Source: Candidatus Latescibacterota bacterium (GTDB lineage: Bacteria > Latescibacterota > UBA2968 > GCA-2709665). Taken from it: a DNA stretch of 64,000 bases. The translations under genes were made by a program, and so were the position numbers. The notes under the pieces were generated by a model. It saw only the letters and a list, made by a program, of their open reading frames with translations. It ran no database searches and was not told the origin of the DNA. The stretch is taken from NCBI GenBank assembly GCA_965203805.1, contig OZ241917.1, positions 3,872,001 through 3,936,000 of the forward strand. Reading direction: 5' to 3'. Positions 6,767-27,803 of the stretch are shown one piece after another; position 1 is the first letter of the stretch, and each line of letters begins with the position of its first letter.

Positions 6767-6783
6767 GCGGACGACCTTGATTG

Positions 6784-6922
6784 AACGTACTCAGGGCCGG
6801 GTGAAGTCCGTTGCGTCCATTCGCGATTGACATCACCCGGCTCTGACGCGTTCAGTGCGCCTGCCATCCTGAGCCGCTCCCTGAGCTTGTCGAAGGGTCG
6901 AAGGGTCGGCGAAGGGTCAAAA
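6784..6922 (+). repeat. Direct repeat copy 2 flanking the AbiE cassette
   Basis: Near-identical to 5660-5803. Confidence 0.9.
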
Positions 6923-7031
6923 TACGTCACATGCGTCAACCCGGCGACGTTGGTGCTCCTTTGTAGCATTTTGCGGCACTTCGGCGCCGGATCATTGACG
7001 AATGGCCGCAGAATGCGACACTCGCGCGGAC

Positions 7032-7060
7032 TTGACAGAACAAATCTTCGCACTTATATT
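7032..7060 (+). promoter_or_regulatory. sigma70-type promoter with no adjacent long ORF
   Basis: TTGACA (7032-7037), 17 bp, TATATT (7055-7060). Confidence 0.55.
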
Positions 7061-7642
7061 CTGGCGGCTTCCGCCGCTCCAGCCCTCGCGTGCGGACAGC
7101 AGGGACTGGAGAACGTGAAGAGATGATGCCTTTCTAATTCAAACGCTCCGGGTTCTGGCCTGCTTCGTTCCGACCGTAGCTCCCATTTATCCTGATTGAC
7201 TGGCAGATGTTCGTTTTCGGATCAGGGAAAGGGCATCCAGTTGACGCTATGGGATCAGGAATTACCGTGAAGCGAGACTTTGAGAGTCAGAATGTTCTGT
7301 AGCATACTTAGACGTTATGTTTGAGTTGTCTTTGCCCACGGCTTTCGTTCCGAATCCGTGCGAGGTCGGATCCACGTTTCATAAGCACCAGTTAGCCAAT
7401 AGGAGGCTGGCTGTGCCGGCGTTCGTTTCTAGTAACGGACGCGTTTTCCGAATCATGCAAAACGAACGAGGGTTTCAGACTGGCAATCGGTGCCCCTTCA
7501 AGATCGGAATAAGCGGCCTGTTTACGTGTTCGTCCTACGCCGGCCACTTGATCAGTCGAACCGATCGTCTGCCAGCTCCTCGTAACATGTCGAACTAAAT
7601 CACGCGCCTCCGGCACCGCCGGGGGCGTATTTCGTGTTGGCC

Positions 7643-8650
7643 ATGAGCAATCGAGAGTTGGTTTCCGTCATCATTCCAACGTATAATCGGGCGAGTTATC
7701 TGGTGCAGTCGCTGGAAAGTGTATTGGCTCAATCGTACCGGAACCTCGAAGTAATCGTTGTTAACGATGGCTCCACTGATGAGACAAGAGCGATATTGGA
7801 GCCTTACCGTAATCGAATTGCGTACTACGAAAAAACAAACGGCGGCAAATCATCAGCGTTGAATCTGGGACTCAAATACATTTCGGGAGAGTATGTCTGG
7901 GTTTTTGATGACGACGACGTCGCACTGCCTGAACTGGTCGAGTCCCATATGTCGGTTTTTGAATCCCAACCCCAGGTCGATTTCGTATATAGCGGATATG
8001 CGTTTTTTGAGGGCAAAGACTCAGACAACGTCATCGAGACGGTCAAGGCTCGTGCATATCCGGATCGTGAGATGGTGGGCGAACTGCTGAATGGGAATTT
8101 CATCAGTGGCGTTTCAGTCGTAGTCCGAAAACGATGTTACGATCGTGTGGGATGTTATGATGAACGGCTGATTCGCGCTCAGGACTACGATATGTGGATC
8201 CGCCTGGCACGCGCAGGTTTTAAAGCGGGCGTAATAGGACGGCCGTTAGTGAGGGTGCGTAAACACGAAGGCTTGCGGGGATCTGAAGAGGACCGGTTTG
8301 ACACCTCCGTTTTGATGGAAAAACACCTGGAGTATCATCGAATAATCATGCAAAAGGTTTATTGGGAAGTCCCGTTGGATGTCATCTCGCCGGAAATGGC
8401 GGATGCTCCGGATGATCCGAAACGAATCTTGCGGGCGTTGTTGAAGCGCACCTGGATTGTGGCCAATAGAATGTTGGTGGATGAGACCACCCGAGATCTT
8501 CGTATCGTTCGTGACCACCTTTCGCAATATGAAAAATTGCGCCTGGATGATCGTCAAAGGTCATTTCTTTCTGCATTGAAGGACTACGCGGGCAGACGAA
8601 GACAGTCCGAGATTGTGTCGTTGAGTGAGCTCTTATTACAATCTGCATGA
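7643..8650 (+). CDS. Glycosyltransferase family 2 with C-terminal helical extension
   Basis: VSVIIPTYNR, IVVNDGSTD, FDDDD, QDYDMWIRL motifs. Confidence 0.93.
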   Translation: MSNRELVSVIIPTYNRASYLVQSLESVLAQSYRNLEVIVVNDGSTDETRAILEPYRNRIAYYEKTNGGKSSALNLGLKYISGEYVWVFDDDDVALPELVESHMSVFESQPQVDFVYSGYAFFEGKDSDNVIETVKARAYPDREMVGELLNGNFISGVSVVVRKRCYDRVGCYDERLIRAQDYDMWIRLARAGFKAGVIGRPLVRVRKHEGLRGSEEDRFDTSVLMEKHLEYHRIIMQKVYWEVPLDVISPEMADAPDDPKRILRALLKRTWIVANRMLVDETTRDLRIVRDHLSQYEKLRLDDRQRSFLSALKDYAGRRRQSEIVSLSELLLQSA

Positions 8651-10878: not shown

Positions 10879-13800
10879 ATGGCCGATCTTGATGCCGGAA
10901 CGATCGTAGACGGACACTATGAGATTATCGCGCCGGTCGGGAGTGGGGGTATGGGAACCGTTTATCGTGCGCGCGACGTCCAGGATAATGAGACCATTGC
11001 GTTGAAGATGCTTAACATTCCGAAACACGGAGCGCAGCGTAGGTTCTTAAGGGAGTTTAGCATCCTGTCCAGGATCCGTTACCCCCGAATTGTACGCTCA
11101 CACAGGTGGGGGGTGTACAAGGGAAGACCTTATTTTTCCATGGATTACGTCCGGGGTCGGACTCTGTCTGACGTAATTGACGACGCGGTGGACCACGAGA
11201 AGCTGAGAACGACGTGGTTCCTCCAATTTGTACAGCAGATTGGCGATGGATTGGTGCACATCCACGAACAGGGCCTGATACACCGGGACTTGAAGCCATC
11301 CAACATAATGATTTCCCAAGCTGGCGGAAATCTCTACGTTACGATTATGGATCTGGGACTCGCACGATTTCAGGAGTCGTTTTACGGGCAACTTACTCAG
11401 CCCGGGACGACCACAGGTACGGTGGAGTATATATCTCCAGAACAGATCCGTGGTCGGTCTGTCGACCAACGTTCTGACTTGTATTCGCTGGGGGTAATAC
11501 TGTACGAAATTCTCACCGGGAAACCGCCGTTCTGCGGCGGAAATCCAGCTTCGGTAATCTTTCGGCATCTCAGAGATCGACCCCGTACGCCTCACGTGCA
11601 AGGCATTCACGACCGGATCACGAGCGTGGTCCTGAAGCTGCTGGAAAAGGATCCGATTGACCGCTATAACTCTGTTCGGAGTCTTCTTCAGGATCTGCGG
11701 GAAAACGCCAGTGCCAAATCCGCTATTGGGATCGGGACTCCTTCTGCTACAAAGCCACCCGATCATTTTTTGCAACCCCAATTTCAGGGCCGGGAAAGTG
11801 AATTGATGGTGCTTCGGAAGGTTCTGAGCGAATCTCGCGATAGTGTGACACGAATGGTCCTGATTAGCGGAGAGGCCGGAATCGGGAAATCTCAGCTGCT
11901 GAATGAGTTCCAAGCCGATGCCCGCGTTCACGGGATGCGTATCCTTAGCGGGCGTTGTTATGAGAGCGGTGGGCGGGCATACGGTCCATTCCTGAAAGCG
12001 TTGACGGACCTGGCAGGGAGGCCGGGCAATCAAGGTTCGGATCTGGAAGTATCCGTTATGCGGGTTCTGGCGCAAATTGAACAGCTGGCGGATAACGATC
12101 AGAATGATCCTTACGCAGTGATGGAAATTTTGTCGGAGTTCTTCCGGATCCTTAGCCGTGAAACACCTACCCTCGTTTGCGTGGACGATATTCAGTGGGC
12201 AGACGATCTGAGTTTGCGGTTTCTGGATTTCATGAGACGCGATACAGACCCATCGAAACTCTACTTCGGCCTGACGTGCCGGAAGGAGGGCGAAGACCAG
12301 TTGCCGGCTCGTATCGAGGCGGTATTTCCCAACGCAGACGGACCCGGAATCGCCCATTTGAGACTCGAGCCGCTCAGTTTTGTGGAAATCAAGAATCTTG
12401 TTGCATCCATACTAGGCGAACCGACCGTGCCGGATGACGAAGCCCGCAGAATTCGTAGGGAGACAGGTGGAAATCCTCTGTTTGCCGTCGAACTGGTCCG
12501 CGGGGCCATCGATGATGGCTCAATTCACCAGGACATTTCAGGCGGGTGGACATGGTCGCGGTCAACCGCGTGGCCCATGCCCGCGGGCATCACGCAGGCG
12601 ATCGATTCGCGTCTCCGTCGGTTGCGGTCTGACGACCGCCGGGCGCTGGAATACGCTTCGATTTTTCGGGGGGCGGTTTCATTCGATCTGATTTCGGAAA
12701 TATGGCGCGGCGATAACTTGCGGTTGCTGGAAGCACTTGAAGGGCTTGTCCGCCTGGGTCTTCTGAGAGCTCTCGAGGACAGCGAGGGGCGGTACCGGTT
12801 TTCTCATGGGTTGATCCAGCGGGCGGTTTACCACGGTATCTCAGAAAAGAAACGCGAACTGTTGCATCTGGAAGCAGGCCGAGCCCTGGAGCCGCGATTC
12901 GAGACGGACTCGGATGAGACGTTGGACGATCTGGCTTATCATTTCTCAAGGTCGAACGACATCGAGAAAACGGTGAGTTGGGTACTGGCAGCTGGTCGCA
13001 AGGCCGTTAATATGAGTGACTTTATACAGGCTGTAGACCACTTTGAAACCGCAATTAAAAGAGGCGCGTTCTTGGCGGATGCGCCAGATAGGATTTGTGA
13101 GGGGTCATTGCATTACATTGATTTTCTCTGCGCATATGCGGAAGCACTTTCCGGATGTGACAGGTTTGACGAAGCCCTAGCCGAGTTGGAGAAGGCCATG
13201 CGGTGGATTTCCAACGATACGCCCGCTCAAAAGGCCGCCGCCCTTACTATGTTGGGTATAAACCACTCAAATTCGGGGGAATTTAAGAAGGCCGAATCGG
13301 TGTGGATGAAAGCTCTGAGCCTTTACCGAGATCTGGGCGATGATGAGAACGAATTGGTGACCCTAGGACTTCTATCGAACGTCTACTTGGATCTGAACTA
13401 TAACAAAGCGGCGGCTAACTATTTTCGCTTGGCCGCTGAAAAGTGCCAGCAGCTAGGTGGCGCTGTAAACAATGCTCGCGCGGAGCTTTTTCTCGCATTT
13501 GAGGCAGAATTGGAGTGCCGAACTGAAGGAGCAAGAACGCTTCTGCAGTCTTCGCTCGATCAGTTGGATCAGAACGGAGACCGTATCTATCGATATTCAT
13601 GTTTGTACCAGTTGGGGCGCATTGAATTACGCTTGGGAAATCTTGACCGTGCGCAGGAGATTTTTCAAGAGCTTCTAGTCTTCTGGCGCAGGTGCGGATC
13701 GAGGAGTTCTGAAGCCAATGCCAATTTGTATCTCGGCAGGATTGCACTGGAACAGGGAGACGCCAACGGCGCGGAATCGCAGGCTCGTGCCGCGGAGCGA

Positions 13801-15741
13801 CTTGCTGTGGATCGAGATCTATGCAATGAATACCATAGGGCTTGTGCGCTTCTCGCCGAGATAATGGCAGAAAGCGGACGTGTCGATGAGGCTCTTTCTT
13901 GGGCTGAACGGGCATCTCCCGGTGTAGACGCCGGCGACGATATGCGCAGTACGGTTCTGACAGCTAAAGCAAAAGCTCTCTCGGCCGCGGGCCAAGATGA
14001 AAATGTCCAATCGCTATTGGAAGTAGCACTTCAAAGCCAGGACGCGCAGCCAGCATCGGAACAGGTACGTCTTCTTCTCGTTGCAGGAATACACCATTTG
14101 GACAGGGGTCAATCCGAGGATGCCCGATGTTACCTGGAGAGAGCCAAACGTGGAGCGGAGGTGATGGGAATGAGTTATTTATCTCGTAAAGCTTCCGACA
14201 TGATTGGCAGAATTCCAGTTCAATTCCGCGAGGAGTCAAACGTAGACCAGTTGGCTCGTGGACTTACTGAGAAGCAACTTGCGACACTTTACGAAGTGTC
14301 AAACGATTTGACGTCTGTGCTCGAATTGAATACGCTACTGGATCGAATTCTTGATCGGCTAATAGGAGTAAGCAGAGCCGAACGCGCTGTAATTGCCCTT
14401 AAGGACCAGACGGCGCAAGGTGTTCAGGCGGCACGTGTCTACAACCTAGAACATGCGGCAACACAGGAGATTAGCAGAAGCGTTATTAGGGAGTCGATGC
14501 GACGAAACGAACCGATTTTATGTGTGAACGCGCAGGTTGATGAACGTTTTGGTCAGCAGGCGAGTGTTGTCGCGTACGGCATCCGTTCGGTGCTTTGCGT
14601 CCCTCTACACCATGAAGAGTTGGGCGTAATTGGAGCGTTGTATATAGACCACCGCGGCATAGAGGACCTATTTGCGGAACGGGACCGGGCCATGTTATCG
14701 GCCTTTGGGAATCTGGTATCCATTGCGGTTGTCAATGCTCGGATGTACTCGCAAATCAGGGACCGGGCGCTATTCTTTCAGAAGCAGATCGAGGGTCGCC
14801 ACCAATTGGAAGAACTGATCGGTCAGAGCCGGGCGATGCAGGACGTGTTCAGCCTGGTTGACGTTGCGGCGGAAAGCGACGTGACCGTACTGATTCAGGG
14901 TGAAACCGGAACGGGCAAGGAACTGGCCGCTCAGGCCATCCACGCACGCAGCGAACGAAAGGAACAGCCTTTCATGTCGGCCAATTGCGCCGCGCTCACC
15001 CACGAACTGCTTCAGAGCGAACTCTTCGGTCACAAGAGGGGTGCCTTCACCGGGGCCGTATCCGACCGAAAAGGGCTGTTTCTATCCGCGGACGGCGGCA
15101 CGGTATTCCTGGACGAAATTGGAGATGCTTCTCCACAATTGCAAGCAAGCCTATTGCGGGTACTTCAGGACGGTGAGATACAGCGAGTCGGTGAGACGGT
15201 GGTCCGGAAAGTAGATGTCAGGGTGATCGCAGCCACGAACCGCGACCTGGAAGCGGATGTTCGCAACGGCTTGTTTCGAGAGGATCTATACTATCGCCTG
15301 AGGGTATTGCAGATTGAGATGCCGCCCCTTCGTGATCACATTGACGATATTCCGCTGCTGTCGGAGCATATTCTGAAACGTGTCTGTGCGGACCAGGGTA
15401 AGTCTGTGCCGGGTTTTACCGTAGGGTCAATACAGGCAATGATGGGTCATGAGTGGCCGGGAAACGTGCGAGAATTGGAAAACGAGATCAGACGCGCGGT
15501 TGCCCTGGTAGAAGAAGGCAAGGAAATCGCTGTCGATCTATTGTCCGAGAAGATCGGGCTTCACGAAAAATTGAACGGCCGGGAACGCGGTTATTTCAAA
15601 GCAAGTGTGATGGCCGTGAAAAGGAGGATGATTGTTGAAGCTCTCGGCAAATGCGGCGGGAATATCACTCGCACAGCCGATCAACTCGGGCTGAGCCGAA
15701 ACGGGCTTCAAAAGATGATGGCACGTTTCGGCATGAGGTGA
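10879..15741 (+). CDS. Ser/Thr kinase + STAND-type AAA NTPase + TPR + GAF + sigma54 enhancer-binding ATPase + Fis-type HTH
   Basis: Kinase [31 protein letters not shown]; P-loop GEAGIGKS with VDDIQWAD; helical repeats; GAF ([15 protein letters not shown]); [44 protein letters not shown]; C-terminal [13 protein letters not shown]. Confidence 0.95.
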
Positions 15742-15882: not shown

Positions 15883-15915
15883 CAAATAGACGTATAAAGT
15901 GTATACATCTATTTG
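15883..15915. promoter_or_regulatory. Palindrome, candidate upstream activator sequence
   Basis: CAAATAGACGTATA-aagtg-TATACATCTATTTG, 13 of 14 arm positions match, ~90-120 bp upstream of the -24 element; IHF-like site near 15950-15963. Confidence 0.5.
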
Positions 15916-16000
15916 CTTAGGACTGGCTGAAGACTATAGACATATTGTTATAATCTATTGTTTTTAAATCGCTTGTGCAACTGCATGAGCGATTTTTTTA

Positions 16001-16017
16001 TTGGCATGCCAATTGCT
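16001..16017 (+). promoter_or_regulatory. sigma54 (-24/-12) promoter
   Basis: TTGGCATGCCAATTGCT fits TGGCAC-N5-TTGC(A/T) with one substitution and lies directly downstream of a GAFTGA-containing activator gene. Confidence 0.9.
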
Positions 16018-16071
16018 ATAAACGTAACACGATAAATGCCAAAGCTTGTCCGCCCAAAAGGAGGAAGAATT

Positions 16072-16275
16072 ATGAAATCCGATGGATCCAAGAGGAATCT
16101 GCGTGCGATTAATGCAGCCGTAGGTAGGAACGGCAGGATCAACAGCTATCTGACATCGTCCGAGCCGTTTAAGGGGTTTGTCTGCACCTGGCCACGATTT
16201 CGCGTACTACCCCCTCCCACCAAGACAGTGGCCCACGTAGAGGCGTTCACCGAGGGATCTAGTCATTCGGGTTAG
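16072..16275 (+). CDS. Putative RiPP precursor peptide (67 aa) with ranthipeptide-like leader
   Basis: AGGAGG RBS; first ORF after the sigma54 promoter; LRAINAAVGRNGRINSY leader; directly upstream of an RRE-rSAM/SPASM gene. Confidence 0.82.
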   Translation: MKSDGSKRNLRAINAAVGRNGRINSYLTSSEPFKGFVCTWPRFRVLPPPTKTVAHVEAFTEGSSHSG

Positions 16276-16348
16276 GGCGTGTTTTCAGATTAAAGCGCGC
16301 CGCCAATCCGTAGGGGGAAATCACTTGCTAAAGATTAAAAGATGTGAA

Positions 16349-17806
16349 ATGCATCTTTTTAGGACGCCGCAAACTATCCATGCAATTGTATTCCAGGTCC
16401 GCACAGGTATTTTTTTCGAATTGGACCCGGTCTGCGAATCGATCTTGAAACGATGCGACGGGCTTTCGGCCGAAGCTTCTGTCTCCGAACTTGCTACTGA
16501 GCACAATCGTGACGATGTCCTCAATTCTATCGAGGTTCTGGAAAAGGTAGGGTTAATATCCGACGCTTCCTTGCAACTCCTTTCGTCGACAACATTGTAC
16601 GATGAACTGCCTTGCGAGAACCCAGGACTTAACAACTACTCAGATCCGTTTCATGTCACACTTCACGTGGCGCATGCGTGCAACATCAAATGCGCCTATT
16701 GCTTCGCCCATGGAGGCGACTACGGCGGACCGCCGGGTTTGATGCATCTCGACGTCGCGCATCAGGCCGTACGATGGGCGTTGGTTTCAGCCATCCCGCA
16801 CAAGAGATGCCAGATCGACTTCTTCGGCGGTGAGCCGCTACTGAATTTCGAACTGATTCAATCGACCGTGCCGTATGCCCGCGAATACGCCCATGAGTTA
16901 GGGGTTGGGGTATCATTTGGTGTAACTACCAACGGATCTTTGCTATCAGAAGAAATAGTCCAGTATCTAACTGGCGAAGAAATCCAGGTTATGGTTAGCG
17001 TAGATGGAAACGCGGCTATTCAAGATCGACTTCGAAAGTTCAATGACGGTAGCAAAACCTTCGATGTTGTGGCTCAAGGAGTCAAAAGGTTAACCCAGAA
17101 GTCGGCAGGGCAGGTGACTGTACATGCAACGATGACATCATTCAATATGGACGGAGACGCAATTGAAAGGGACTTGGAAAAACTAGGTGCGGCTCAGCTA
17201 GAGTTCGCTCAAGTCGTGGCATCCCCGAATGTTCCCTATGCATTTCGAGAGGAGCATCTTCCGGAGTTAAAGCGCGGACTTTACAAGAAGAGCAAGCGAG
17301 AACTTGAGGCAATTCTCAACGGTTCGCAGAATGCCGGATTTTTCGATGAATATATAGAGAGGTTGATGAGACGTGATAATGTCTGCCATGGCTGCCAGGG
17401 CGGGAAGACATTTTTCGCGGTGGCTGCGGACGGCGCGATCTATTTCTGTTCCAGTTTGGCGGACAGCCCGGAATTTAAGATGGGGGATGTATTCGCCGGA
17501 TTGGACGTACAAATCCAAGACCGAATCAAAGAGACGTTTCAGGTAGACAACCGAACCGATTGCCGGGCCTGCTGGGCAAGGAATCTGTGCGGCGGAAGCT
17601 GTTTATTTGATGCACGTACTTCAACCGGGGATCCGTTGAAACCCAATCCGGTGTCGTGCGAACAGATACGGTATCGATACGAGTTGGCGATGGAGATGAG
17701 TTTGGAAATCCAAAACCGAGACGAGGGGATTCTTAGAAACAGATACGATTTGGAGTGGACAGATCAAGAAGATGAACCGCCCCAACATTGTATTAGTCGC
17801 GAATAA
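16349..17806 (+). CDS. Radical SAM/SPASM peptide maturase with N-terminal RRE (CteB/PapB/QhpD-like); alternative TTG start 16325
   Basis: PqqD-like N-terminus ending LEKVGLI; LHVAHACNIKCAYCFAHGG; IDFFGGEPLLNF; TTNG; VSVDG; SPASM GCQGG..AIYFC and CRACWARNLCGGSC..SC. Confidence 0.93.
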   Translation: MHLFRTPQTIHAIVFQVRTGIFFELDPVCESILKRCDGLSAEASVSELATEHNRDDVLNSIEVLEKVGLISDASLQLLSSTTLYDELPCENPGLNNYSDPFHVTLHVAHACNIKCAYCFAHGGDYGGPPGLMHLDVAHQAVRWALVSAIPHKRCQIDFFGGEPLLNFELIQSTVPYAREYAHELGVGVSFGVTTNGSLLSEEIVQYLTGEEIQVMVSVDGNAAIQDRLRKFNDGSKTFDVVAQGVKRLTQKSAGQVTVHATMTSFNMDGDAIERDLEKLGAAQLEFAQVVASPNVPYAFREEHLPELKRGLYKKSKRELEAILNGSQNAGFFDEYIERLMRRDNVCHGCQGGKTFFAVAADGAIYFCSSLADSPEFKMGDVFAGLDVQIQDRIKETFQVDNRTDCRACWARNLCGGSCLFDARTSTGDPLKPNPVSCEQIRYRYELAMEMSLEIQNRDEGILRNRYDLEWTDQEDEPPQHCISRE

Positions 17807-17941: not shown

Positions 17942-19111
17942 GTGCATAAGTGTGACCCACGAACTACAGTGGAATATCCGCTCGCCGTCTTCACACCTCA
18001 GGTTGGAACTGTTTCGGAGACCTTCATTCGTCGGCATGTAAATGATCTGTGCACTGGCGCATCCGTTACGATTACCTGTCAAGTCGGCGACCCGGTAAGA
18101 TCCAGTTGGAACTTTGTTGGACCGATGTTGGTTTTGGATCACGTAGAGCCGGTTCGTTTCACACGAGAGACAGGCTGGGAGTTCACTTCGAAGCACCTTA
18201 ACGCGATAAAGGGGTTTTTACAGGAACATCACGTTCAGATTGTGATGGGAGAATACCTGGATGTCTGTTTGCCTCTATTGGAGATCGCTGTAGAGTTGAA
18301 GATTCCATTTTGGGGGCATGCTCATGGCTACGACATTTCCATGCGCTTGCGCGATCACCGGCTTCGGAATGCATACCGCCGCTATAGGGAGGCGGCTGGA
18401 ATTATTGTGGGCTGTGATTGGGCCCGCAAACGGTTAATCCGTTTGGGTTTGACGGCAGACAATGTTCATGTGGTCCCATGCGGTGTAGACTTACCTAAAC
18501 AGCCTGTGGTTCGATCTCACTCGGAATATATCCGTTGCTTAGCCGTGGGTCGGTTTATTGAAAAGAAAGCACCTCTTGTAACGCTGGATGCATTCCGGCA
18601 GGCTATGACGGCATGTCCAAGATTGCGATTGCACTATATCGGTTCAGGTGATTTGGTTCCGTCGGCCCAAGAGTATATACGAAATCATGATTTGGTGAGT
18701 TGTGTCACGCTTTACGGTAGTCGATCTCACGATTTCGTGAAACAATCGATGCAGTGGGCGGATATTTTCCTACAACACAGTATGACCGATCCGGCAACTG
18801 GCGACCAGGAAATGATGCCAGTTGGGATTCTGGAGGCAATGGCAAACAGCCTGCCGGTAGTTTCGACCCGGCATGCGGGAATTCCCGAGGCAGTAGAAGA
18901 GAGTATAACAGGGTATCTGGTAGATGAAGGTGATAGCAGCGGTATGTGCGACTGCATTGTTCAACTGGCACAGAATCGTGAGTTGCGCAAACGAATGGGA
19001 TGTGCAGCCCGTGAGCGCGTCAATGGTCGTTTCTCCTGGGACCTTGAACGCACTGCTTTGTTGGAATTATTAGACCTTAGATACGTGGCCAATCGCTTTG
19101 GCGCTTCATGA
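17942..19111 (+). CDS. Glycosyltransferase family 4 (WcaL-like)
   Basis: SETFI, HGYDI, VGRFIEKK, QEMMPVGILEAMANSLPVVSTRHAGIPE. Confidence 0.9.
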   Translation: MHKCDPRTTVEYPLAVFTPQVGTVSETFIRRHVNDLCTGASVTITCQVGDPVRSSWNFVGPMLVLDHVEPVRFTRETGWEFTSKHLNAIKGFLQEHHVQIVMGEYLDVCLPLLEIAVELKIPFWGHAHGYDISMRLRDHRLRNAYRRYREAAGIIVGCDWARKRLIRLGLTADNVHVVPCGVDLPKQPVVRSHSEYIRCLAVGRFIEKKAPLVTLDAFRQAMTACPRLRLHYIGSGDLVPSAQEYIRNHDLVSCVTLYGSRSHDFVKQSMQWADIFLQHSMTDPATGDQEMMPVGILEAMANSLPVVSTRHAGIPEAVEESITGYLVDEGDSSGMCDCIVQLAQNRELRKRMGCAARERVNGRFSWDLERTALLELLDLRYVANRFGAS

Positions 19112-19292
19112 GTGGGAAATGACAGAGGCGTCTCTCTAATGGATGTGTAGATTTGATGCGCATTGAGGTTCGCCATAGGGTCGTGGATCGTGCCTTTGAA
19201 GCCGAAAAAAGTGTTTCATTGTCAGAAAATATCCAGTCAGATGCACCGGTCTTGGGACGATACAACTGGCGGGCCTTGGAGCATCTGAGATA

Positions 19293-19883
19293 ATGCACAG
19301 ACTCGACGACGATAATGAGTATTTCGCGCTTGTAATGTTGGACGTTCGGACAGCGTTTTTCGACATCCAACGTATATTGCAGGTGGACCAGGAAAAACAT
19401 CCCGATTATGACGTCTTGTTTGTAGTCGGACGCGATGTACGGGACAATTTGAATCGGGCGTTACGGCAACGAGCCCCAGACGTTACGGTAATACCGAGGA
19501 AGGACGCAGCGTCGCATCTGGCCCTCGCCAAACTCGTCGAGGCACGCCAAAGATATTCACATGTTCTTGCGGAGAGACTGGATCGCTATCTCGAGACGCA
19601 CTTTCAGAAGAAGTCGCTGTCATTGGGAGATTTGCGAGAGAGTTTTCAAATTTCATCGAGTTATATTACCCGGCTGTTCCGGGAACACGTAGGGATGTCA
19701 TTTCGAAAACGGTTGAATTCGTACCGTGTACAAAAAGCCAAGCACCTGTTAAAAACTACAGATCAGACAGTGGATTGCATTGCAAGAGAGGTTGGATTCA
19801 GGAATCACGCACGGCTGACAGAAGCGTTTTACAGGTTCGAAGGCATGCCGCCGGGCCGGTTTCGCAGGATGTGTGTTTTTTGA
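19293..19883 (+). CDS. AraC-family transcriptional regulator
   Basis: C-terminal SSSYITRLFREHVGMSF..RVQKAKHLL..IAREVGF..GMPPGRFR. Confidence 0.85.
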   Translation: MHRLDDDNEYFALVMLDVRTAFFDIQRILQVDQEKHPDYDVLFVVGRDVRDNLNRALRQRAPDVTVIPRKDAASHLALAKLVEARQRYSHVLAERLDRYLETHFQKKSLSLGDLRESFQISSSYITRLFREHVGMSFRKRLNSYRVQKAKHLLKTTDQTVDCIAREVGFRNHARLTEAFYRFEGMPPGRFRRMCVF

Positions 19884-19938
19884 GACTTCGTAATGTAGGA
19901 AATCCAAGTCAGGCAGGACAAGCTGAGGTTGTTGCCCT

Positions 19939-20889
19939 ATGGTTACGGTCAAAAACATGCCGGAAGGAACTTCACACCGGGTTCATTCATCCGCTGTCGT
20001 CGGAACCGGAACAATGATTGGGGATTATACTTCGATTATGAAGGGGGTAATGGTTGGCGCAGAATGTGAAATCGGACAACATGTGGTAATTCACCCGGAT
20101 ACGATAATTGAAGATGGTGTGCGTATTGACGACCATGCGACGATCGGGAAGTTGCCAATGAGAAGTGTTGCCAGCGCTTTCAATCGAAGTGACCAGCCCG
20201 AGCCAGCAAGGATCGGAAGCGGCTGTTTGGTTGGTACATCAGCGATCCTGTACCGAGGGTGTCGAATTGGAAATCATGTCCTGATTGCTGACCAGGCGAC
20301 TGTACGAGAGGATAGCACGGTGGGGGATTATACGATTATTGGACGGAACGTCGCGCTCGAAAGCCAGGTAATCGTAGGGAGGTTGTGCAAGATTGAGGCA
20401 GGAGCGTATGTTGCCGGACCTTCAGAGATTGAGGAAGGTTGTTTTGTTGCCCCAGGCGTGGTTGTTACCAATGACAACTTCATGGGCCGGACGGAAGCCA
20501 GAAAACGGAAATTTAGAGGGATTAGAATTGAAGTCGGAGGCCGAATTGGTGCTAATTCTACAATCCTCCCCGGTAAACGAATCGCGCCTGATGGAGTGGT
20601 GGCCGCAGGTGCGGTTGTAACACGTGACGTGCCGGCGCGCACGGTGGTTTCCGGACTCCCTGCGCGTTATCTCCGCGATGTAACGCCCGAGGAGTTTTGG
20701 CGGCATCAAGAACCAGTGGTACGCGGTGACCTCGAAATGGAACCCCGAGGCACAGATTCCAGTTCACGAGAATGCGAACGGAACAGGGGGTCGGCAGAAG
20801 AGGGTCGCCTAGCGGGGTACTTCTTCAACGAATTGACATTTGAGTATCAAGAACTACCTGGAAATGGGGGATCGGCATTTGGGAATTGA
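19939..20889 (+). CDS. Hexapeptide-repeat sugar N-acetyltransferase (WbpD-like)
   Basis: Left-handed beta-helix repeats; APGVVVTND, IGANSTILPG, VVAAGAVVTRDVP..GLPAR. Confidence 0.88.
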   Translation: MVTVKNMPEGTSHRVHSSAVVGTGTMIGDYTSIMKGVMVGAECEIGQHVVIHPDTIIEDGVRIDDHATIGKLPMRSVASAFNRSDQPEPARIGSGCLVGTSAILYRGCRIGNHVLIADQATVREDSTVGDYTIIGRNVALESQVIVGRLCKIEAGAYVAGPSEIEEGCFVAPGVVVTNDNFMGRTEARKRKFRGIRIEVGGRIGANSTILPGKRIAPDGVVAAGAVVTRDVPARTVVSGLPARYLRDVTPEEFWRHQEPVVRGDLEMEPRGTDSSSRECERNRGSAEEGRLAGYFFNELTFEYQELPGNGGSAFGN

Positions 20890-20890
20890 A

Positions 20891-21460
20891 ATGGGGCCGC
20901 AGCATTATGACAAGGTATACGAGTCTACGGAACTCTACCGCCTTCACTATTCGCAGTCCCGCTGCTACGAATTATGGAAGCGGGTCTTGAGGTTTATGCG
21001 GGTATTTCCGTCACCGCGTGTTTTGGAAATCGGGTGCGGAACCGGGCAGTTTGCGCATATGCTCTGGGATACGGGCTATAGGCAATACCATGGTTTCGAT
21101 TTCAGTACCGCAGCAGTTCGAATTGCGACGGGTGCCTGCGAACAGTCGTTTACGGTCGCTGACGCAAGAAAGCCTGAAGCATATCAATGGAATTACAATC
21201 TGGCGCTTGCAATCGATTTTCTGGAACACGTTGAAGACGATTTTGAGATCCTTGGACACATTAGTCCGGGGACGCCACTTGTATTTACCTTGCCGACCTT
21301 CGATGATCCAGCGCATGTGAGATGGTTTCGGCATCCGGACGAGATCTATGATCGGTATGGAGTCTGCATCAGTTTTACAGGTTTATCGTTTGTCAAGCCG
21401 TGGTTCGTGTGTCTGGGACACGTGGCTCGACCGGCAGTGAAATCTGTACCATTGGTTTGA
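20891..21460 (+). CDS. Class I SAM-dependent methyltransferase (start uncertain, 20864 possible)
   Basis: VLEIGCGTG, GFDFS, FLEHVEDD. Confidence 0.85.
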   Translation: MGPQHYDKVYESTELYRLHYSQSRCYELWKRVLRFMRVFPSPRVLEIGCGTGQFAHMLWDTGYRQYHGFDFSTAAVRIATGACEQSFTVADARKPEAYQWNYNLALAIDFLEHVEDDFEILGHISPGTPLVFTLPTFDDPAHVRWFRHPDEIYDRYGVCISFTGLSFVKPWFVCLGHVARPAVKSVPLV

Positions 21461-21519
21461 GTTAAACCGTCGTCGATATCAAAGAAATCCCGATATCCAA
21501 TCTGTCGAAGAGATGATGC

Positions 21520-22305
21520 ATGTCACCTATCTGGGACTCTGATTTCAGTTACGCATATTTTGAAAATATCCTCGAAGTTGCGAAACGCAATTATTGTCTG
21601 AGTCTCCTTGGTGACGCTCCAGAGGTACTACAGCGACCTTCCGCAAGGCCGCGGCTATTCCTTCGCCATGACGTGGATTTCGATTTGGGTGCGGCGCTTA
21701 GGTTGGCGGAAGTAGAGAGCAGGTTCAATGTCACTGCCACCTATATGGTTATGGTCAATTCCCCTTTCTATCGTGCAGACACGAAGCACGCAAGTAGCAT
21801 ATTCCTTCGTCTTATGTCACTGGGACATGAAATAGGTTTACACTTTTACTTTAGGCGGTGTGCTTGTTTGGGCGAGGACGTCGGGGTCGATGCCTTGTTG
21901 CCAGAAATACAAAATGCATGCGCGCAACTTGAAGATAGTATTCGACTTCCTGTAACGTCCTTTTCTCTTCATCGTCCGTTAAGCCGGTTCTTGGGTGGCG
22001 ACTTGCTTGTCGGTGGGAAAGTGAATGCATACGCAGGTGTTCTAATGGATTGGTATCTGTCTGATTCAAAAGGATCCTGGCGCGAAGGAGAACCGCTGCC
22101 GAAACTGTTAAATCCAGTACGTCCAAATTTGCAGCTGTTGATCCATCCCATTTGGTGGGGCGGCAGTCGGATTGCACCAAGGATGCGCTTAGAACGGTTC
22201 CTAGATGAAAAGGCTTGCGGTCTGACCGCACATCAACTGAAGGAACTAAATGCTACACTCCAAGAATATGTCACGATCCCGAATTTAAGGATTCGTGGAG
22301 GCTAA
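21520..22305 (+). CDS. Polysaccharide deacetylase-like protein (WbmS-like)
   Basis: LRHDVD, GHEIGLH, YLSDSKGSW, QLLIHPIWW. Confidence 0.75.
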   Translation: MSPIWDSDFSYAYFENILEVAKRNYCLSLLGDAPEVLQRPSARPRLFLRHDVDFDLGAALRLAEVESRFNVTATYMVMVNSPFYRADTKHASSIFLRLMSLGHEIGLHFYFRRCACLGEDVGVDALLPEIQNACAQLEDSIRLPVTSFSLHRPLSRFLGGDLLVGGKVNAYAGVLMDWYLSDSKGSWREGEPLPKLLNPVRPNLQLLIHPIWWGGSRIAPRMRLERFLDEKACGLTAHQLKELNATLQEYVTIPNLRIRGG

Positions 22306-22323
22306 CTTCGACGGAAAAGTCGT

Positions 22324-23097
22324 GTGCATGCTGCGCAATGGATTCTCGTAGTTAAGACAAAGACCGGGGGGAATAACGAAGTGCCGATTGTAATGAGTGC
22401 GCATCAACCCAATTGTTTGCCCTGGCTGGGTTTCTTTCACAAAATGACCTATAGCGACGTATTCGTTTTTCTGGATGATGTTCAATTTACAAATAAGACA
22501 TATACAAATCGGTACTATGTGAAATTCAACGGCAATAAAGTGCGCCTAAGCGTACCTGTGCTTAAATCAAAATCGCTTCGAAAGATAAGAGAGATCGAAA
22601 TAGACACTCGTATGTTCTCGTACAAACACATTCAGACATTCCATCATGCGTACGGGAAATCTATCGGTTTTGATGAGATATTCCCAATTCTCCTTCCGCA
22701 CTTTGAGATGGGAAAAATCAATCTTGCGGAATTAAATATGGGGCTCATTAGGGCACTGGCAGACTATATGGAGTTGACACCCCGATTTATAAGGTTGTCG
22801 GATCTGGGACTCAAGAGTAAGAAAAACCAGCTACTAATCGATATAGCTAAAAAATGTGAAGTGGACATTTTTGTTTCAGGAGTTGGCGCCAGAGCCTATA
22901 TCTCAGGTCACGAATACAGATATGCAGAGAAAGGGATATTATTGGCATTCCAGAATTTCATCCATCCTGTTTACGTCCAATCAACCGGCCCCTTCCTGGC
23001 AGGGTGCAGTATTGTCGACTTGCTATTTAATACTGGAAGACTTGCTCTGGACCATCTAGTCAGCCAGAAGCAAGCTCCATACATATATGCTAAGTGA
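22324..23097 (+). CDS. WbqC-family protein (start may be further downstream)
   Basis: AHQPNCLPWLGFFHKM..DVFVFLDDVQF..NR; HPVYVQ..SIVDLLFN. Confidence 0.88.
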   Translation: MHAAQWILVVKTKTGGNNEVPIVMSAHQPNCLPWLGFFHKMTYSDVFVFLDDVQFTNKTYTNRYYVKFNGNKVRLSVPVLKSKSLRKIREIEIDTRMFSYKHIQTFHHAYGKSIGFDEIFPILLPHFEMGKINLAELNMGLIRALADYMELTPRFIRLSDLGLKSKKNQLLIDIAKKCEVDIFVSGVGARAYISGHEYRYAEKGILLAFQNFIHPVYVQSTGPFLAGCSIVDLLFNTGRLALDHLVSQKQAPYIYAK

Positions 23098-23185
23098 TAT
23101 AGGGCGCGGAAAAGTGCTCAATGAACTCCTAAGGGTTTGAGGTCGGCCGGCAGTTCGTACCCTTTAATGCTTCGGATGGTTAACG

Positions 23186-24709
23186 GTGCTAATACTCACA
23201 GGCGTCTGCATCATTGCGGCGTTGGTTAGAGTTATCCCTCGGTTATTCGCGCCAGCTATGGTCACCGATACCTATGGGCATTGGATCCTAATAAAAAAAA
23301 TAAGGGAAAAGGGTATTATCGAGGCACATAATGATGTGCACTATTACCCGTTAGGCTTTCATTGGCTGCTCAGTTTTATTCCAGATAGACTTTTGCCCCA
23401 TTGGGACCGGATCAATGGGGCCTTTTTTGACGTTTTACACGTCGTCCTCTTTTCATTCGCAATTTGGAGGCATTCGGTCGAAAGCAAAATGCCTGATGAA
23501 ATTGTGTGGGGCTGGGCGCCGTTACTTCTGGCGCTATCTCCGGCCTGGTTATCGTTGGGGCGAGGCCCAAGAGCTTACCATGGCACTGCGCGCGTATTTG
23601 GTGAGTTATTGGTCAGCGGAGTCTTCGTATGTATTTGGATATACCAGGATACTGGTTCGATGGAGTGGCTGACTTGTGCGATCATTGTGAGCGTAGTACT
23701 GATGCTATCGAGCAAATTTGGCTCGCAGGTCCTTTTGTCGTTCTGTTTGATTATTGGCGTACTCCAACGCAGTATCATTCTAATGTCTATACCTTTTGTC
23801 TCAGGTCTGCTGGCATATGCGTTCTCAAAGAAGGCATATGGCACGATTCTTAAAGGGCATATCCGTCATTTAAAATGGTATGCGAGCAATATCAAAAAGA
23901 AGAGAATGTTTATTGCAAACCGTAACTCCCTCCGGGAAATATGGCGGATATACAGGCAATCTGGCATTCTAGCGGCTGCGTACAGGTTTTTTGGTGTAAA
24001 TAGCGTGGGTGTAGGGATTTTTCAACATCTAATTTTGATAGTCGTCCTGATCCAAACCGGCGGAAGCGACGTATCTGGTACGTTGCCAAATTACCTATGG
24101 CATTGGTTGTTCGCGGGCGTCTGTCTGTGGATGCTTTCTTCCATGAAATTTCTGTTGTTTATCGGCGCTGCTGAAAGGTATCTCTTTGCAATGGCGATCC
24201 CGGAATACATCCTGATCGCAGACTACTTGCTCGATGGTCCGGCAGGAGCACGCTGGGTGATACTCTTCGGATCTGTTTTCGTTTGGCTAGTCTTCGTATG
24301 GCAGATGCGCATACAGTATGGTGGGTACTATTATTTGGAGACCAAAGCAAGAAAACAAACCATAGGTTTTCTTAATACGCTAACTTCAATGAGACTGCTC
24401 ACGTTCGACCGATCGCCTGCATGGGACATAGCATATAAGACCAATCACCACCATTTTATGATTGTTCCGGAATTTGACGCAACATCATCATGGGATGATC
24501 TCTTTGAATATGATACATATCCCAGCTGGAAGGCTGTGTCCCTTTTAGATCTACGATTAATTGTAGTGAGTCGCGAGGCAGTGATGGATGCCATACGAAA
24601 GAAGATCCCTGTTGCATTTCCGTTTTCGGAGCTTGAGAAGCTGTTCGACAATGGAATGTATCAGGTATATCGTGTGCCAGAGTCCTTGTTTCATCCAATC
24701 GGGTCCTGA
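23186..24709 (+). CDS. Multi-pass membrane protein, possible GT-C fold glycosyltransferase
   Basis: N-terminal TM, acidic loop (TDTYGH), YYPLGFHWLL, many TM helices, soluble C-terminal domain. Confidence 0.6.
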   Translation: MLILTGVCIIAALVRVIPRLFAPAMVTDTYGHWILIKKIREKGIIEAHNDVHYYPLGFHWLLSFIPDRLLPHWDRINGAFFDVLHVVLFSFAIWRHSVESKMPDEIVWGWAPLLLALSPAWLSLGRGPRAYHGTARVFGELLVSGVFVCIWIYQDTGSMEWLTCAIIVSVVLMLSSKFGSQVLLSFCLIIGVLQRSIILMSIPFVSGLLAYAFSKKAYGTILKGHIRHLKWYASNIKKKRMFIANRNSLREIWRIYRQSGILAAAYRFFGVNSVGVGIFQHLILIVVLIQTGGSDVSGTLPNYLWHWLFAGVCLWMLSSMKFLLFIGAAERYLFAMAIPEYILIADYLLDGPAGARWVILFGSVFVWLVFVWQMRIQYGGYYYLETKARKQTIGFLNTLTSMRLLTFDRSPAWDIAYKTNHHHFMIVPEFDATSSWDDLFEYDTYPSWKAVSLLDLRLIVVSREAVMDAIRKKIPVAFPFSELEKLFDNGMYQVYRVPESLFHPIGS

Positions 24710-24804
24710 ACCCCATCTAAATGGATAGAACAAAAGGGCACAGGGCCGGGATAAGACTCTTACTCGCACAGTCGCAGGGACGCGTTCGTTTCCCGTGAAC
24801 TGAA

Positions 24805-26589
24805 ATGCTAATTTCAAAAGCCCAATCGACCAGTCTGTGTAAACGATTCGGAATCGTAGCCTTGAGTTTACTTTCCGCGTTATCCTTCGGTGTGACCTAC
24901 GGATGGTCTGATCAGACAGTTTACATGCTTCCCGGACTCAAGTTGGCAAACCCTTCTCTATGGAACAACGACTGGCTTGTATCGGAGACTACACACCCTC
25001 ACGTCGCGTTCAATTACCTCGTTTATGCGCTTTCAATGATTGGTCCTGTTGAGTGGACAACGGCGGCACTTCATCTGGTGATGATGTTTGCGGTAGTCGT
25101 AAGTGTTTTTTTCCTTCTCGCCGGCCTGTATGAACGCCCACTCTTGCCGTTTTTGTTCTCGCTTGTTCTCTTGCACATGATTTTTGGCAGGGTGGTCTTA
25201 TCTCATGGGTTCTTCCTGCCGTTGCTGTTGCCGACGAATATTGCGGCGTGTTTTTTTCTCGTGGGTATTGCGACGTTAACTCGCGCAGTAAGGCAATGGT
25301 CGAATACAGGGCGCCAACCGAATTGCCCTACAGCGGCTGCGCACGGCCTACGTTTTCTTGGGCTTTATGGGTTTTTCGTTTCTGGTCTGCTGTTTGGCCT
25401 CAGTGGTCTTTTTCACGGCACTTTTCTCTGCCTGGTTCCGGTGTTTCTGGTGGGTTTGCTAATTTGCCGGCGAATGGCTGTATGTCAGGTGGTTGTCCTT
25501 GGCGTACCGTTCTTCGTGGTGATTCTTCCTGCCCTCTGGTGGGCCTTACGCTCATTCGTTGTGGACGAGGCGGGAAGTCTTGAAAGGTTAGACGAAATCG
25601 CACGTATCCGGATTCCGCATCACTATCTGCCATCGACTTGGGGAAAAGAAACGATATTGATGTTTGCTGGTAGCATGTTGCTGGGTGCGATAGGGATCAT
25701 CCTGAGACGGCCGGCGAGAAAGGAAGCTTCAGTCGTGTTCGCCTCGGTAGCCTCAATCGCGGGCGTTTCAGTCTTGGTGTTCTTCTCGACTGTTGTATTC
25801 TTCGTGCCTCAAATTGCTATGCTTCAGACTTATCGATTTGTGGCATTTCTCTCGGTCTTCAGTGTCTTGTTTTTTGCGGGTGCAATTGCAGGGCAGGTCG
25901 AATTAGCACCGAGTTCGCGTTGGGCTTTGAAGACTGGTGTAACGTACATATTTGTGGCAATTGGGCTATCGGTCGCGTCTTGGATAGATGTTTACGTTGG
26001 GATCACTCTTGGGGTACTGTATTTGTTCGGGCTGGCAGGAACACAGTTAGAATGGCATCGTCCAAGTTTATCATGGATTGGGGAATTATCGCTCATTTTC
26101 GTCGTAACAATCTTTGTTGGCTTGTACGCTGTTGAACGATTTCCATATTCCAGGCAGGCATTGATACCGGTACAAAAATCGAGAGCCGCACTATTTAAGT
26201 GGGTGCAAGAAACTACCCCGAAGGATGCGGTCTTCATTGTGCCGATCGATTTACAGAGGTTTCGGCTGCACACAAAACGCAGCATCGTAGCTGACTGGAA
26301 AGGCAATTCATATCGACTTGAAGACGTGGAAGAGTGGGTCCGCCGAATTCGCGCAGTTTGTGGAAATCCGATGGCCTATTCATACCGTGAGCTGTATAGA
26401 GGATATCAGACAATGGAAGTAAATAGAGCTCGACGGTTGGCCGATGAATTTGGAGCACAGTATGTGGTCGTTAAAGCCTTTCAGCACAAGGGTCATCTCG
26501 GCGAATTTGAAAGGGTTTATTCTCGAGGTGGGTTCTTGGTCTACCGAATTTGTCGGTCGATCGCAATTTCGGAGGAATTCGTCACATGA
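24805..26589 (+). CDS. Multi-pass membrane protein with DUF6798-like region, possible GT-C
   Basis: DQTVY..NDW, RIPHHYLP, WVQETTPKDAVFIVP..FRL..RSIVADWK..EWVRRI. Confidence 0.7.
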   Translation: MLISKAQSTSLCKRFGIVALSLLSALSFGVTYGWSDQTVYMLPGLKLANPSLWNNDWLVSETTHPHVAFNYLVYALSMIGPVEWTTAALHLVMMFAVVVSVFFLLAGLYERPLLPFLFSLVLLHMIFGRVVLSHGFFLPLLLPTNIAACFFLVGIATLTRAVRQWSNTGRQPNCPTAAAHGLRFLGLYGFFVSGLLFGLSGLFHGTFLCLVPVFLVGLLICRRMAVCQVVVLGVPFFVVILPALWWALRSFVVDEAGSLERLDEIARIRIPHHYLPSTWGKETILMFAGSMLLGAIGIILRRPARKEASVVFASVASIAGVSVLVFFSTVVFFVPQIAMLQTYRFVAFLSVFSVLFFAGAIAGQVELAPSSRWALKTGVTYIFVAIGLSVASWIDVYVGITLGVLYLFGLAGTQLEWHRPSLSWIGELSLIFVVTIFVGLYAVERFPYSRQALIPVQKSRAALFKWVQETTPKDAVFIVPIDLQRFRLHTKRSIVADWKGNSYRLEDVEEWVRRIRAVCGNPMAYSYRELYRGYQTMEVNRARRLADEFGAQYVVVKAFQHKGHLGEFERVYSRGGFLVYRICRSIAISEEFVT

Positions 26590-27803
26590 AGGTCTGCATG
26601 ATTACGTTTCAATATCCGCCGGTGTTTAACGGGGGTGTAGGGAGTGTCGCCTTCCGATTGGCTAGGAATCTGGCGTCGGCAGGAGTTGACGTGCATGTTA
26701 TCGCTCCGGGTACCCATCATTTGGATGACCCGATAGCGCCTGCCTCCGAGGATGGAGCAATTGTCCACCGAACTTATCCGGCGCTTGGTTCCTACTTTGG
26801 AGACCATACCCAACTGGGGCGAATCGGCGACCACGTAATCAAATTGCATCGCGAGGTGGATTTCGATTTGGTACATGCTTTGTTTCTGGTGCCGGCGGGA
26901 CAGTTAGGCGCGATTGTAGCTGGGCAAATCGACCGGCCATTGGTGGCTAGCGCTCATGGAAGCGATATTGAATTGATGCGGTACAACCCGGCGCTGATCG
27001 GGACATTGCGGTGGGTACTCAATGAGGCGGATATCGTTACGGCTGTTAGTGCTGAGTTGCTGAACAAAGCACAAAGATTCGCCAACATAAGGGACGGGAG
27101 AGTTATTCCGAATGCTTTCGATCCGGAATCGTTCGAGCCGTGGTCCCTTAAGGAAGTATCGGCCAACCAGGGATGGCGGTTTCAGGTATTCGTGGAGTCG
27201 TTTTTGCGTACGAAACGGCGTGGCGGGCCGGTGATCGGCACAGCCGGGATGATTCGACCTGCTAAGGGTCTCCCGGTTCTGCTGGATGCTTTTCATAAGT
27301 TAATGGGGACGGTGTCAGATGCGCATCTGCTGATAGTAGGTGATATCGTAAACCCCCAGGATAAGAAGAGATATTTAAGTCGAATCAAGACTATGGGATT
27401 GAAACGAAAGGTAACATTGACCGGTTCGGTACCGCCAAGGCAGGTGATGGCCTGGATGCGGGAAATGGATGTTTTCGCCCTTCCGTCGTTACATGAAGGA
27501 TCTCCTTGCGCATTGATGGAGGCGATGGGTTCTGGGCTCGCCGTAGTCGCGACGAACGTAGGCGGAATACCAGACCTCGTGACGGATGGTGTGAATGGAA
27601 TGCTGGTTGACTACGGCGACTCAGGGATACTGGCGGAGAAACTGTCCGCATTGTGTCTTGATACTGCGACCCGCGCCCGGCTCGGCATTGCTGCGAAGCA
27701 AACAGTCGAAACCGGCCTCCTGCCGAAAGACGAAACGGAAACCTGGCTGGACGCGTATTGTTCTGTCATTGCTGAAACATGCCCGCCCGAAATTGTGAAA
27801 TAA
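26586..27803 (+). CDS. Glycosyltransferase family 4
   Basis: YPPVFNGG, HGSDI, KG, EGSPCALMEAMGSG..VGGIPD; ATGA overlap with the previous gene. Confidence 0.92.
   Translation: MKVCMITFQYPPVFNGGVGSVAFRLARNLASAGVDVHVIAPGTHHLDDPIAPASEDGAIVHRTYPALGSYFGDHTQLGRIGDHVIKLHREVDFDLVHALFLVPAGQLGAIVAGQIDRPLVASAHGSDIELMRYNPALIGTLRWVLNEADIVTAVSAELLNKAQRFANIRDGRVIPNAFDPESFEPWSLKEVSANQGWRFQVFVESFLRTKRRGGPVIGTAGMIRPAKGLPVLLDAFHKLMGTVSDAHLLIVGDIVNPQDKKRYLSRIKTMGLKRKVTLTGSVPPRQVMAWMREMDVFALPSLHEGSPCALMEAMGSGLAVVATNVGGIPDLVTDGVNGMLVDYGDSGILAEKLSALCLDTATRARLGIAAKQTVETGLLPKDETETWLDAYCSVIAETCPPEIVK

Follow-up and report, generated by a model that had tools for sequence, protein, structure and literature searches.

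We analysed a window of 64,000 nucleotides from Candidatus Latescibacterota bacterium (contig OZ241917.1, positions 3,872,001 to 3,936,000), the whole stretch of DNA to which all coordinates below refer, and describe in it three genes that we read, with moderate confidence, as a module for a ribosomally synthesized peptide with post-translational modifications (RiPP). They encode a 67-aa precursor peptide with one Cys (16072..16275, + strand), a 493-aa radical S-adenosylmethionine (rSAM) maturase with a putative RiPP recognition element (RRE) and a SPASM domain (16325..17806, + strand), and a 1620-aa regulator (10879..15741, + strand). The module would represent an undescribed ranthipeptide-like family in which the core receives one Cys-centred modification, probably a thioether. 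Precursor and maturase appear to form a new family with an unusual dedicated sigma-54 regulator, the chemistry being deduced from sequence comparison. A preliminary description of the same DNA had proposed a genuine precursor and maturase pair distinct from the multi-Cys SCIFF and PapA systems, with a WPR-containing core that would form either a single thioether to an unusual acceptor or a Trp-x-Arg cyclophane. The pair stood up to the comparison with related loci, and the WPR core and the cyclophane did not.

Conservation of the precursor peptide

Relatives were gathered from a species-representative genome collection and a metagenome collection, and the fetched loci were numbered L001-L058. 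The counts over 42 loci given below refer to enzyme-related loci with DNA upstream of the enzyme. L030, L045, L049, L050 and L053, which have no such DNA, were left out, together with the distant rSAMs at 22-32% identity (L038-L041 and L054-L058) and the SCIFF-like comparator L037. Every one of these 42 loci was found to have, ahead of the enzyme, a small open reading frame (ORF) built to the same layout. The preliminary description had been staked on homologous loci carrying a conserved upstream peptide, and they do. It had also reported a 67-aa ORF with a strong ribosome binding site. The exact sequence quoted there is present, beginning with the ATG at 16072 and closing with a stop codon whose last base is 16275, and GGAGG (16060..16064, + strand, read from the sequence) lies 7 nt before the ATG; a GGAG-type block before the start codon is kept across the loci of a 5-locus intergenic alignment.

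The leader of the window peptide contains L-R-A-I-N, with the codon of Asn14 at 16111-16113, and the core reads F-V-C-T-W-P-R-F-R-V-L-P-P-P, with the codon of Cys38 at 16183-16185. In the MAFFT alignment of 34 peptide rows, Asn14 and Cys38 are invariant (34/34), and conservation at Gly21 and Pro49 is 90% or more. The leader motif that had been picked out in the single sequence is therefore a property of the family, in the form h-x-x-[IVL]-N with the Asn invariant. Among the 41 distinct peptide sequences, one Cys is found in 30 and two in 9; the remaining two, with 3 and 5 Cys, come from ORFs retaining an over-long N-terminal extension. Since no Cys-rich version occurs among these 41 homologous peptides, the concern that the window might hold a decayed copy of a Cys-rich precursor finds no support.

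The spacing downstream of the Cys is also regular. Counted from the Cys in the 41 distinct peptides, Val occupies +7 in 30, and Pro occupies +8 in 31, +9 in 29 and +11 in 34. Three core types follow the enzyme clades in the tree described below: the window type (C-x-W-P-x-[F/W]-x-h-L-P-P-P), the largest type (C-x6-V-P-P-L-P-F-P, with an acidic tail after it) and the distant types (for example S-C-[D/E]-P-S-[F/W]-P-L). As a separate observation, the peptides of L007 and L018 have a shortened acidic tail, and an insert of about 300 nt with a conserved 52-aa ORF lies between peptide and maturase in both loci (L007:2645-2948 and L018:3697-4000). This insert is common to one metagenome-assembled genome (MAG) labelled Poribacteria and one labelled Latescibacterota.

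It might be argued that the small ORF is not a substrate at all, being a chance ORF or a regulatory leader 5' of the rSAM gene. This would suit the lack of any protein family model for it: the window peptide gave no match in a Pfam scan, and three precursors (window, L006 and L031) gave none in an NCBIfam scan. A single-sequence search of 5.8 billion proteins likewise returned only the window's own copy, a result that has no bearing on conservation. On the other hand, conservation at the protein level holds between loci with enzymes at only 42-73% identity to that of the window, and the invariant Asn and Cys, the strong ribosome binding site and an excess of third-position variation all speak against this explanation. 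In 29 major-type homologues, variation in the core block amounts to 0.085, 0.034 and 0.273 at the first, second and third codon positions, which is a coding signature and not the pattern of a chance ORF. Moreover, when a profile of the 34 peptides was searched against 1.84 billion representative proteins, 19 of the 20 matches were small peptides of the same layout that gene callers had predicted elsewhere, some of them with a garbled or truncated core. With just 20 matches in a set of this size, the family is judged real but rare. We conclude from this conservation that the peptide is a real, conserved gene, and we give the chance ORF or leader a negligible probability. The twentieth match (P0135) is a 642-aa repeat protein matched five times through the leader-like stretch L-R-L-V-N-G...E-G-R-I-E-I-Y; it was taken as a chance resemblance and not as a homologous family member.

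Maturase motifs and phylogeny

The maturase gene begins with TTG 50 nt downstream of the peptide ORF. The family consensus covers its residues from this start, and no terminator-like site was detected in the 50-nt gap. An RRE-rSAM/SPASM gene directly after the peptide, with the motifs LHVAHACNIKCAYCFA and DFFGGEP, had been noted before, and both the gene and the motifs are present as quoted. In Pfam, the protein matches Radical_SAM (4.6e-12, 46.9 bits) and also Fer4_12. The PqqD/RRE match at residues 21-78 is weak (19.6 bits, below the cut-off of 23.4); several close homologues have precomputed PF05402 matches. Among solved structures, CteB (5wgg) is the best relative, with an E value of 3.8e-54, and the aligned residues 21-456 span the RRE region.

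For the motif counts, 55 family members were compared with 54 SCIFF-like relatives. The CxxxCxxC motif of radical SAM enzymes corresponds to C119, C123 and C126, invariant in 55/55 and 54/54, respectively. A seven-Cys SPASM domain follows the pattern C-x9-15-G-x4-C, a gap, C-x2-C-x5-C-x3-C, another gap and a last C. All seven of these Cys (C357, C375, C413, C416, C422, C426 and C445) are invariant in the 55 family members, as is G370. The maturase therefore carries the radical SAM motif and the seven-Cys SPASM motif by which RRE-dependent rSAM/SPASM maturases are recognised, the motifs for both auxiliary clusters being represented. Two features set the family apart. First, Y-F-C-S is found in 53-55 of the 55 family members, compared with Y-P-C-H in 51-53 of the 54 relatives and YPCH in CteB, which agrees with the earlier remark that the enzyme has FCS where such relatives have (P/L)CH. 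Second, there is an extra Cys, C354, three residues ahead of the first SPASM Cys (C-H-G-C). Of the 55 family members, 32 have Cys at this position and a further 17 have Glu, Asp or His; the 54 relatives have Leu, Ile, Gln, Val or Thr, and none has Cys. Cys354 may serve as a fourth ligand of the first auxiliary cluster.

The four best NCBIfam matches are all Cys-thioether maturases. The best is the SCIFF maturase model TIGR03974 (243 bits, cut-off 425), followed by the nif11-type maturase TIGR04064 (236 bits, cut-off 519), QhpD TIGR03906 (234 bits, cut-off 453) and PapB NF047865 (223 bits, cut-off 340). In a search of 5.8 billion proteins, 66 proteins were listed at 39-100% identity, the top one being the window's own; most are unnamed, and the named ones among them come from Gemmatimonadota and Latescibacteria MAGs. 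Below these 66, the scores fall to SCIFF-type maturases at 29-36% identity.

A tree of 55 rows was computed with the quick mode of IQ-TREE and rooted at the midpoint. Its outgroups are SCIFF-like only, without references for PapB, QhpD, nif11-type enzymes or WprB, and so the placement relative to the PapB, QhpD and nif11-type families is by the model scores given above. All 28 enzymes preceded by a precursor group in one clade with an SH-like approximate likelihood ratio test (SH-aLRT) value of 99, within which the window-type clade has a value of 97. The sister group of the 28 consists of six "second" rSAM genes (SH-aLRT 98), and both are split from the 21 SCIFF-like rows (100). By its place in this tree, the maturase belongs to a distinct clade. 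The same genome encodes a second copy of the enzyme, which is 60% identical.

The six second genes are rSAM/SPASM-like and lie downstream of the maturase (L029:5545-7026, L003:6307-7698, L046:2423-3901, L036:5378-6844, L030:1096-2511 and L031:6141-7637). They form the sister clade of the maturases with long branches. In L003 and L046, model matches begin only after about residue 120, and their radical SAM motif is perhaps degenerate. No such gene is present in the window; its closest locus, L029, has one between the maturase and a family 4 glycosyltransferase (GT4).

Predicted modification and its alternatives

We propose that the putative N-terminal RRE of the maturase binds the leader through h-x-x-[IVL]-N with its invariant Asn. 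An Asn in the leader of PapA has likewise been proposed as required for RRE binding (PMC9413430). The preliminary description had also proposed a gap-free alignment with the PapA leader; the leader motif it quoted does not appear in the main text of PMC9413430. The radical SAM/SPASM core would then act on the core peptide, with its one invariant Cys as the site or the starting point of the reaction. The likeliest reaction would be the formation of one intramolecular thioether (-2 Da) from the Cys sulfur to a carbon of a residue at +2 to +11. The putative acceptor stretch is hydrophobic and rich in Pro, being C-x-W-P-x-F-x-h-L-P-P-P in the window and C-x6-V-P-P-L-P-F-P in the larger subfamily. 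A link to the alpha-carbon (sactionine) or to Val or Pro may be formed instead.

Among known systems, the closest counterpart is SCIFF (ScfA/ScfB and CteA/CteB). It shares the putative N-terminal RRE, the radical SAM core, the seven-Cys SPASM domain and the full-length alignment with CteB, as well as the best NCBIfam model. The minimal unit of peptide and enzyme, with no conserved protease or exporter, and an h-x-x-L/I-N leader motif are also alike, one Cys-rich comparator peptide of this kind being seen at L037. There are also differences. The window maturase reaches just 243 of the 425 bits set for SCIFF and falls outside the SCIFF-like rows in the tree; its precursors have one conserved Cys, whereas SCIFF precursors have six; Y-F-C-S replaces Y-P-C-H; and the module comes with a sigma-54 promoter and its own giant activator. 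The hosts differ as well, with Latescibacterota, Gemmatimonadota and Poribacteria MAGs here and Bacillota and Caldisericum records named among the SCIFF matches. PapB/PapA (freyrasin) and QhpD/QhpC fall in the same broad enzyme group (223 and 234 bits for PapB and QhpD), and a leader Asn has been proposed to matter for RRE binding in PapA too. However, both scores are below the cut-offs of these models (340 and 453), and the window family has no repeated C-x3-D/E and no conserved acidic acceptor after the Cys. The enteropeptin precursor KgrA also resembles the window peptide, being a single-Cys precursor acted on by a radical SAM enzyme; KgrC is characterised in a Mitchell group survey as a sequence-divergent sactisynthase (PMC10288494), and the two systems are likened by description only. 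That survey also states that the RODEO scoring module for sacti- and ranthipeptides was trained without single-Cys precursors, too few data being available (PMC10288494).

Several observations weigh against an ordinary thioether maturase. The enzyme falls under the curated cut-off of every thioether-maturase model. For calibration, the SCIFF model gives 331-615 bits to the ten outside relatives that are nearest, and the other three models give them 251-324 bits. When the 223-243 bits of the window enzyme are set against these 251-324 bits of true SCIFF-type maturases on non-SCIFF models, it appears as an outlying branch whose reaction could differ. The active-site region also differs, with Y-F-C-S for Y-P-C-H and the extra Cys354 in 32 of 55. 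The known ranthipeptide acceptors are Asp, Glu, Thr and Asn, and no such residue is conserved after the Cys in the 41 distinct peptides.

In the main rival, the Cys is modified without a ring: it could be epimerised, joined to a non-peptide partner, or oxidised to formylglycine or a thioaldehyde in the manner of anaerobic sulfatase maturases. The enzyme has detectable similarity to these maturases (E 1.1e-15 in the PDB, 109 bits in NCBIfam). The modification site of sulfatases is C-x-P-x-R, and the precursors are loosely similar to it, with C-x-P in 20 of the 41 distinct peptides and Pro within 3 residues of the Cys in most. The lack of an evident conserved acceptor would also be explained, and, given the extra potential cluster ligand at position 354, the substrate thiol could stay off the auxiliary cluster. 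Nevertheless, the maturase is far nearer the thioether maturases (243 versus 109 bits) and carries a putative RRE, and the fixed spacing from the Cys to V/P-P-x-P at +7 to +11 suggests that a defined downstream segment matters. We therefore consider a ring-free modification unlikely and retain the single thioether as the preferred reading.

A second alternative follows the cyclophane proposed earlier. Here a Trp-centred C-C crosslink would be formed at W-P-R, as by WprB, and the Cys would be incidental. The WPR-crosslinking rSAM enzyme mentioned earlier does exist: WprB is reported to join Trp-C5 to Arg-C-gamma at WPR motifs (PMC11851443), and the tripeptide W-P-R occurs in the window core. 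The same source describes WprB as 28% identical to WgkB, as lacking the Aux I cysteines (a twitch domain), as requiring a separate WprC and as acting on three WPR repeats (PMC11851443). In contrast, the window core has a single W-P-R, and the window maturase has a complete SPASM domain and a putative fused RRE; the two types are set apart here by the description of WprB. GggB, the only model of the published WprB group in the NCBIfam listing, gives 63 bits compared with 243 for the SCIFF maturase. The peptides argue in the same direction. W-P after the Cys is confined to the close subfamily, and the Trp at that position is missing from the other subfamilies, while the Cys is invariant. Across the 13 distinct peptides of the window type, W-P is followed by Arg in 5, by Trp, Asp and Glu in 2 each, and by Lys and Leu in 1 each, so that Arg or Lys follows in just 6/13. 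The WPR motif is therefore not supported as the functional core, and we regard the cyclophane as very improbable.

With regard to significance, rSAM/SPASM thioether maturases have so far been charted mainly through Cys-rich precursors. The present family supplies 41 distinct natural substrates, 30 of them with one Cys, at a fixed Cys-to-Pro-rich spacing, and it also offers the sister clade of second enzymes and the Y-F-C-S/Cys354 signature. Taken together, these make a clean system for asking what sets the choice of acceptor. Should the link prove to be an ordinary thioether and the product lack notable activity, the result would be a solid new family and no new principle.

Regulation, gene neighbourhood and distribution

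The promoter and the linkage to a regulator go beyond what had been read from the sequence before. According to Pfam, the regulator (10879..15741) combines a Ser/Thr kinase, AAA_16 (a STAND NTPase), MalT-like TPR, GAF, sigma-54 AAA+ and HTH_8 domains. In 37 of the 41 loci counted for adjacency, the gene immediately upstream, on the same strand, encodes a homologue. The genome holds exactly two full-length regulators, 55% identical to each other, one beside each of its two peptide-enzyme pairs.

Between regulator and peptide, a repeat, a hairpin with a T-run and a promoter stand in an order that is conserved among window-type loci. The -24/-12 element TGGCATgccaaTTGCT (16002..16017, + strand) lies 70 nt before the peptide start and agrees with the consensus searched, TGGCAC-N5-TTGCA, at 9 of 11 scored positions, with intact GG and GC cores. 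Taken alone this match is not above chance, the window giving 12 matches with 16.9 expected by chance. The promoter call is therefore based not on the window match itself but on the conserved position of the element: upstream of the peptide, an element scoring at least 9/11 is found in 38 of 42 loci and one scoring at least 10/11 in 30 of 42, at 58-123 nt from the peptide start in most loci and at 169-220 nt in four distant ones. Since rpoN is present in the genome, the three features expected of a sigma-54 operon, namely a GG/GC promoter, an adjacent enhancer-binding protein and rpoN, are found together by sequence.

The hairpin (13 pairs) and T-run at 15966..15995 (+ strand) form a terminator-like match directly before the promoter. 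The hairpin arms and the T-run are kept in 5/5 aligned window-type loci, and a stricter regular expression matched 5/6. Its probable role is that of a terminator keeping the peptide operon insulated from the regulator gene, which would make expression of the peptide dependent on activation. Further upstream, the repeat CGTATAAAGTGTATAC (15891..15906, no strand assigned) falls in a conserved block of the 5-locus intergenic alignment and belongs to a subfamily consensus, TGTATACA-N-TGTATAC. This consensus occurs in 6/6 window-type loci at 111-121 nt ahead of the -24 element, on a background of 32 matches in 856,722 nt (all loci, both strands), and we infer that it is a candidate binding site for the activator. 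Placed about 110 nt before the promoter, it would be bound by the giant kinase-STAND-TPR-GAF protein, which would drive the sigma-54 promoter, and peptide and maturase would be co-transcribed.

Major-type loci (L005-L034) have repeats that are related to this one yet distinct, such as TATATACAGTGTATCT and TGTATGCAGTGCATCC, at about 270-290 nt before the peptide start; in 8 major-type loci they lie about 210 nt ahead of the sigma-54 promoters. The differing repeats suggest paralogue-specific activator sites. In one paralogous locus type (L008, L012, L019, L023, L025, L026, L028 and L035, at about 5500-9400), the maturase is followed by a short sigma-54 activator of about 340 aa and then by a protein of about 950 aa whose C-terminal half is of the UvrD helicase type.

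In the literature searched, including the available portions of the sponge-microbiome papers, Latescibacterota MAGs carry only automatic "ranthipeptide" labels, and no account of the precursor family or of the regulator link was found there, although supplementary tables may list clusters. Nor did we find in the literature any RiPP module described as tied one-to-one to an activator of the kinase-STAND-sigma-54 kind. This wiring gives a direct handle on the timing of peptide production in uncultured Latescibacterota and Gemmatimonadota. A bolder proposal is that the modified peptide is not a product of antibiotic type but a signal sensed by the TPR, GAF and kinase part of the adjacent activator, closing a sigma-54 autoinduction loop that also switches on surface-glycan genes. 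The parallel cassettes, at 2-3 per genome in one genus, would then be separate channels, and the Cys would perhaps be joined to a Val or Pro carbon in V-P-P-x-P, an acceptor that to our knowledge has no precedent among radical SAM thioether enzymes. We think this quite unlikely.

When the loci are compared, only regulator, peptide and enzyme are constant, and the genes downstream vary; no protease or exporter is conserved beside the module. In the window, a glycan-type cluster follows (17942..27803, + strand), comprising by Pfam and NCBIfam a GT4, an AraC regulator, a NeuD-like hexapeptide acetyltransferase, a methyltransferase, a WbqC-like protein, a DUF6798 protein and a second GT4. We treat this cluster as context, any tie to the peptide being putative. 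The closest locus, L029, whose enzyme is 73% identical, has GT4, AraC and acetyltransferase in the same order. Elsewhere, sugar-related genes recur among the variable downstream genes (GT4 and GT9 glycosyltransferases, UDP-glucose dehydrogenase and DUF354), and an AraC regulator is found downstream in 7 loci including the window. A 300-aa protein is encoded downstream in 13 loci; the short sigma-54 activator and UvrD-type helicase are found together in 10. The 300-aa protein and a 388-aa protein, both absent from the window, gave no Pfam or NCBIfam match.

The module was found in Latescibacterota, Gemmatimonadota and Poribacteria MAGs. Within the phylum of the window, 25 of 168 genomes have the enzyme, including 4 of 15 in the window's own genus; in another genus the figure is 15 of 21, with 2-3 copies per genome. 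Given this uneven distribution, the module is accessory and patchy. A screen of sequencing runs listed no RNA run; one sponge metagenome contained 0.20 of the query words, on which we base no claim about habitat.

Two other genes of the window were observed beyond the module. At the far end of the glycan-type cluster lies a DDE_3 transposase gene with helix-turn-helix domains (28580-29701, - strand). Further on, 31312-34086 (+ strand) encodes a 924-aa protein with an N-terminal peptidase M61 domain and C-terminal multihaem cytochrome motifs (c554, c7 and MtrC-like).

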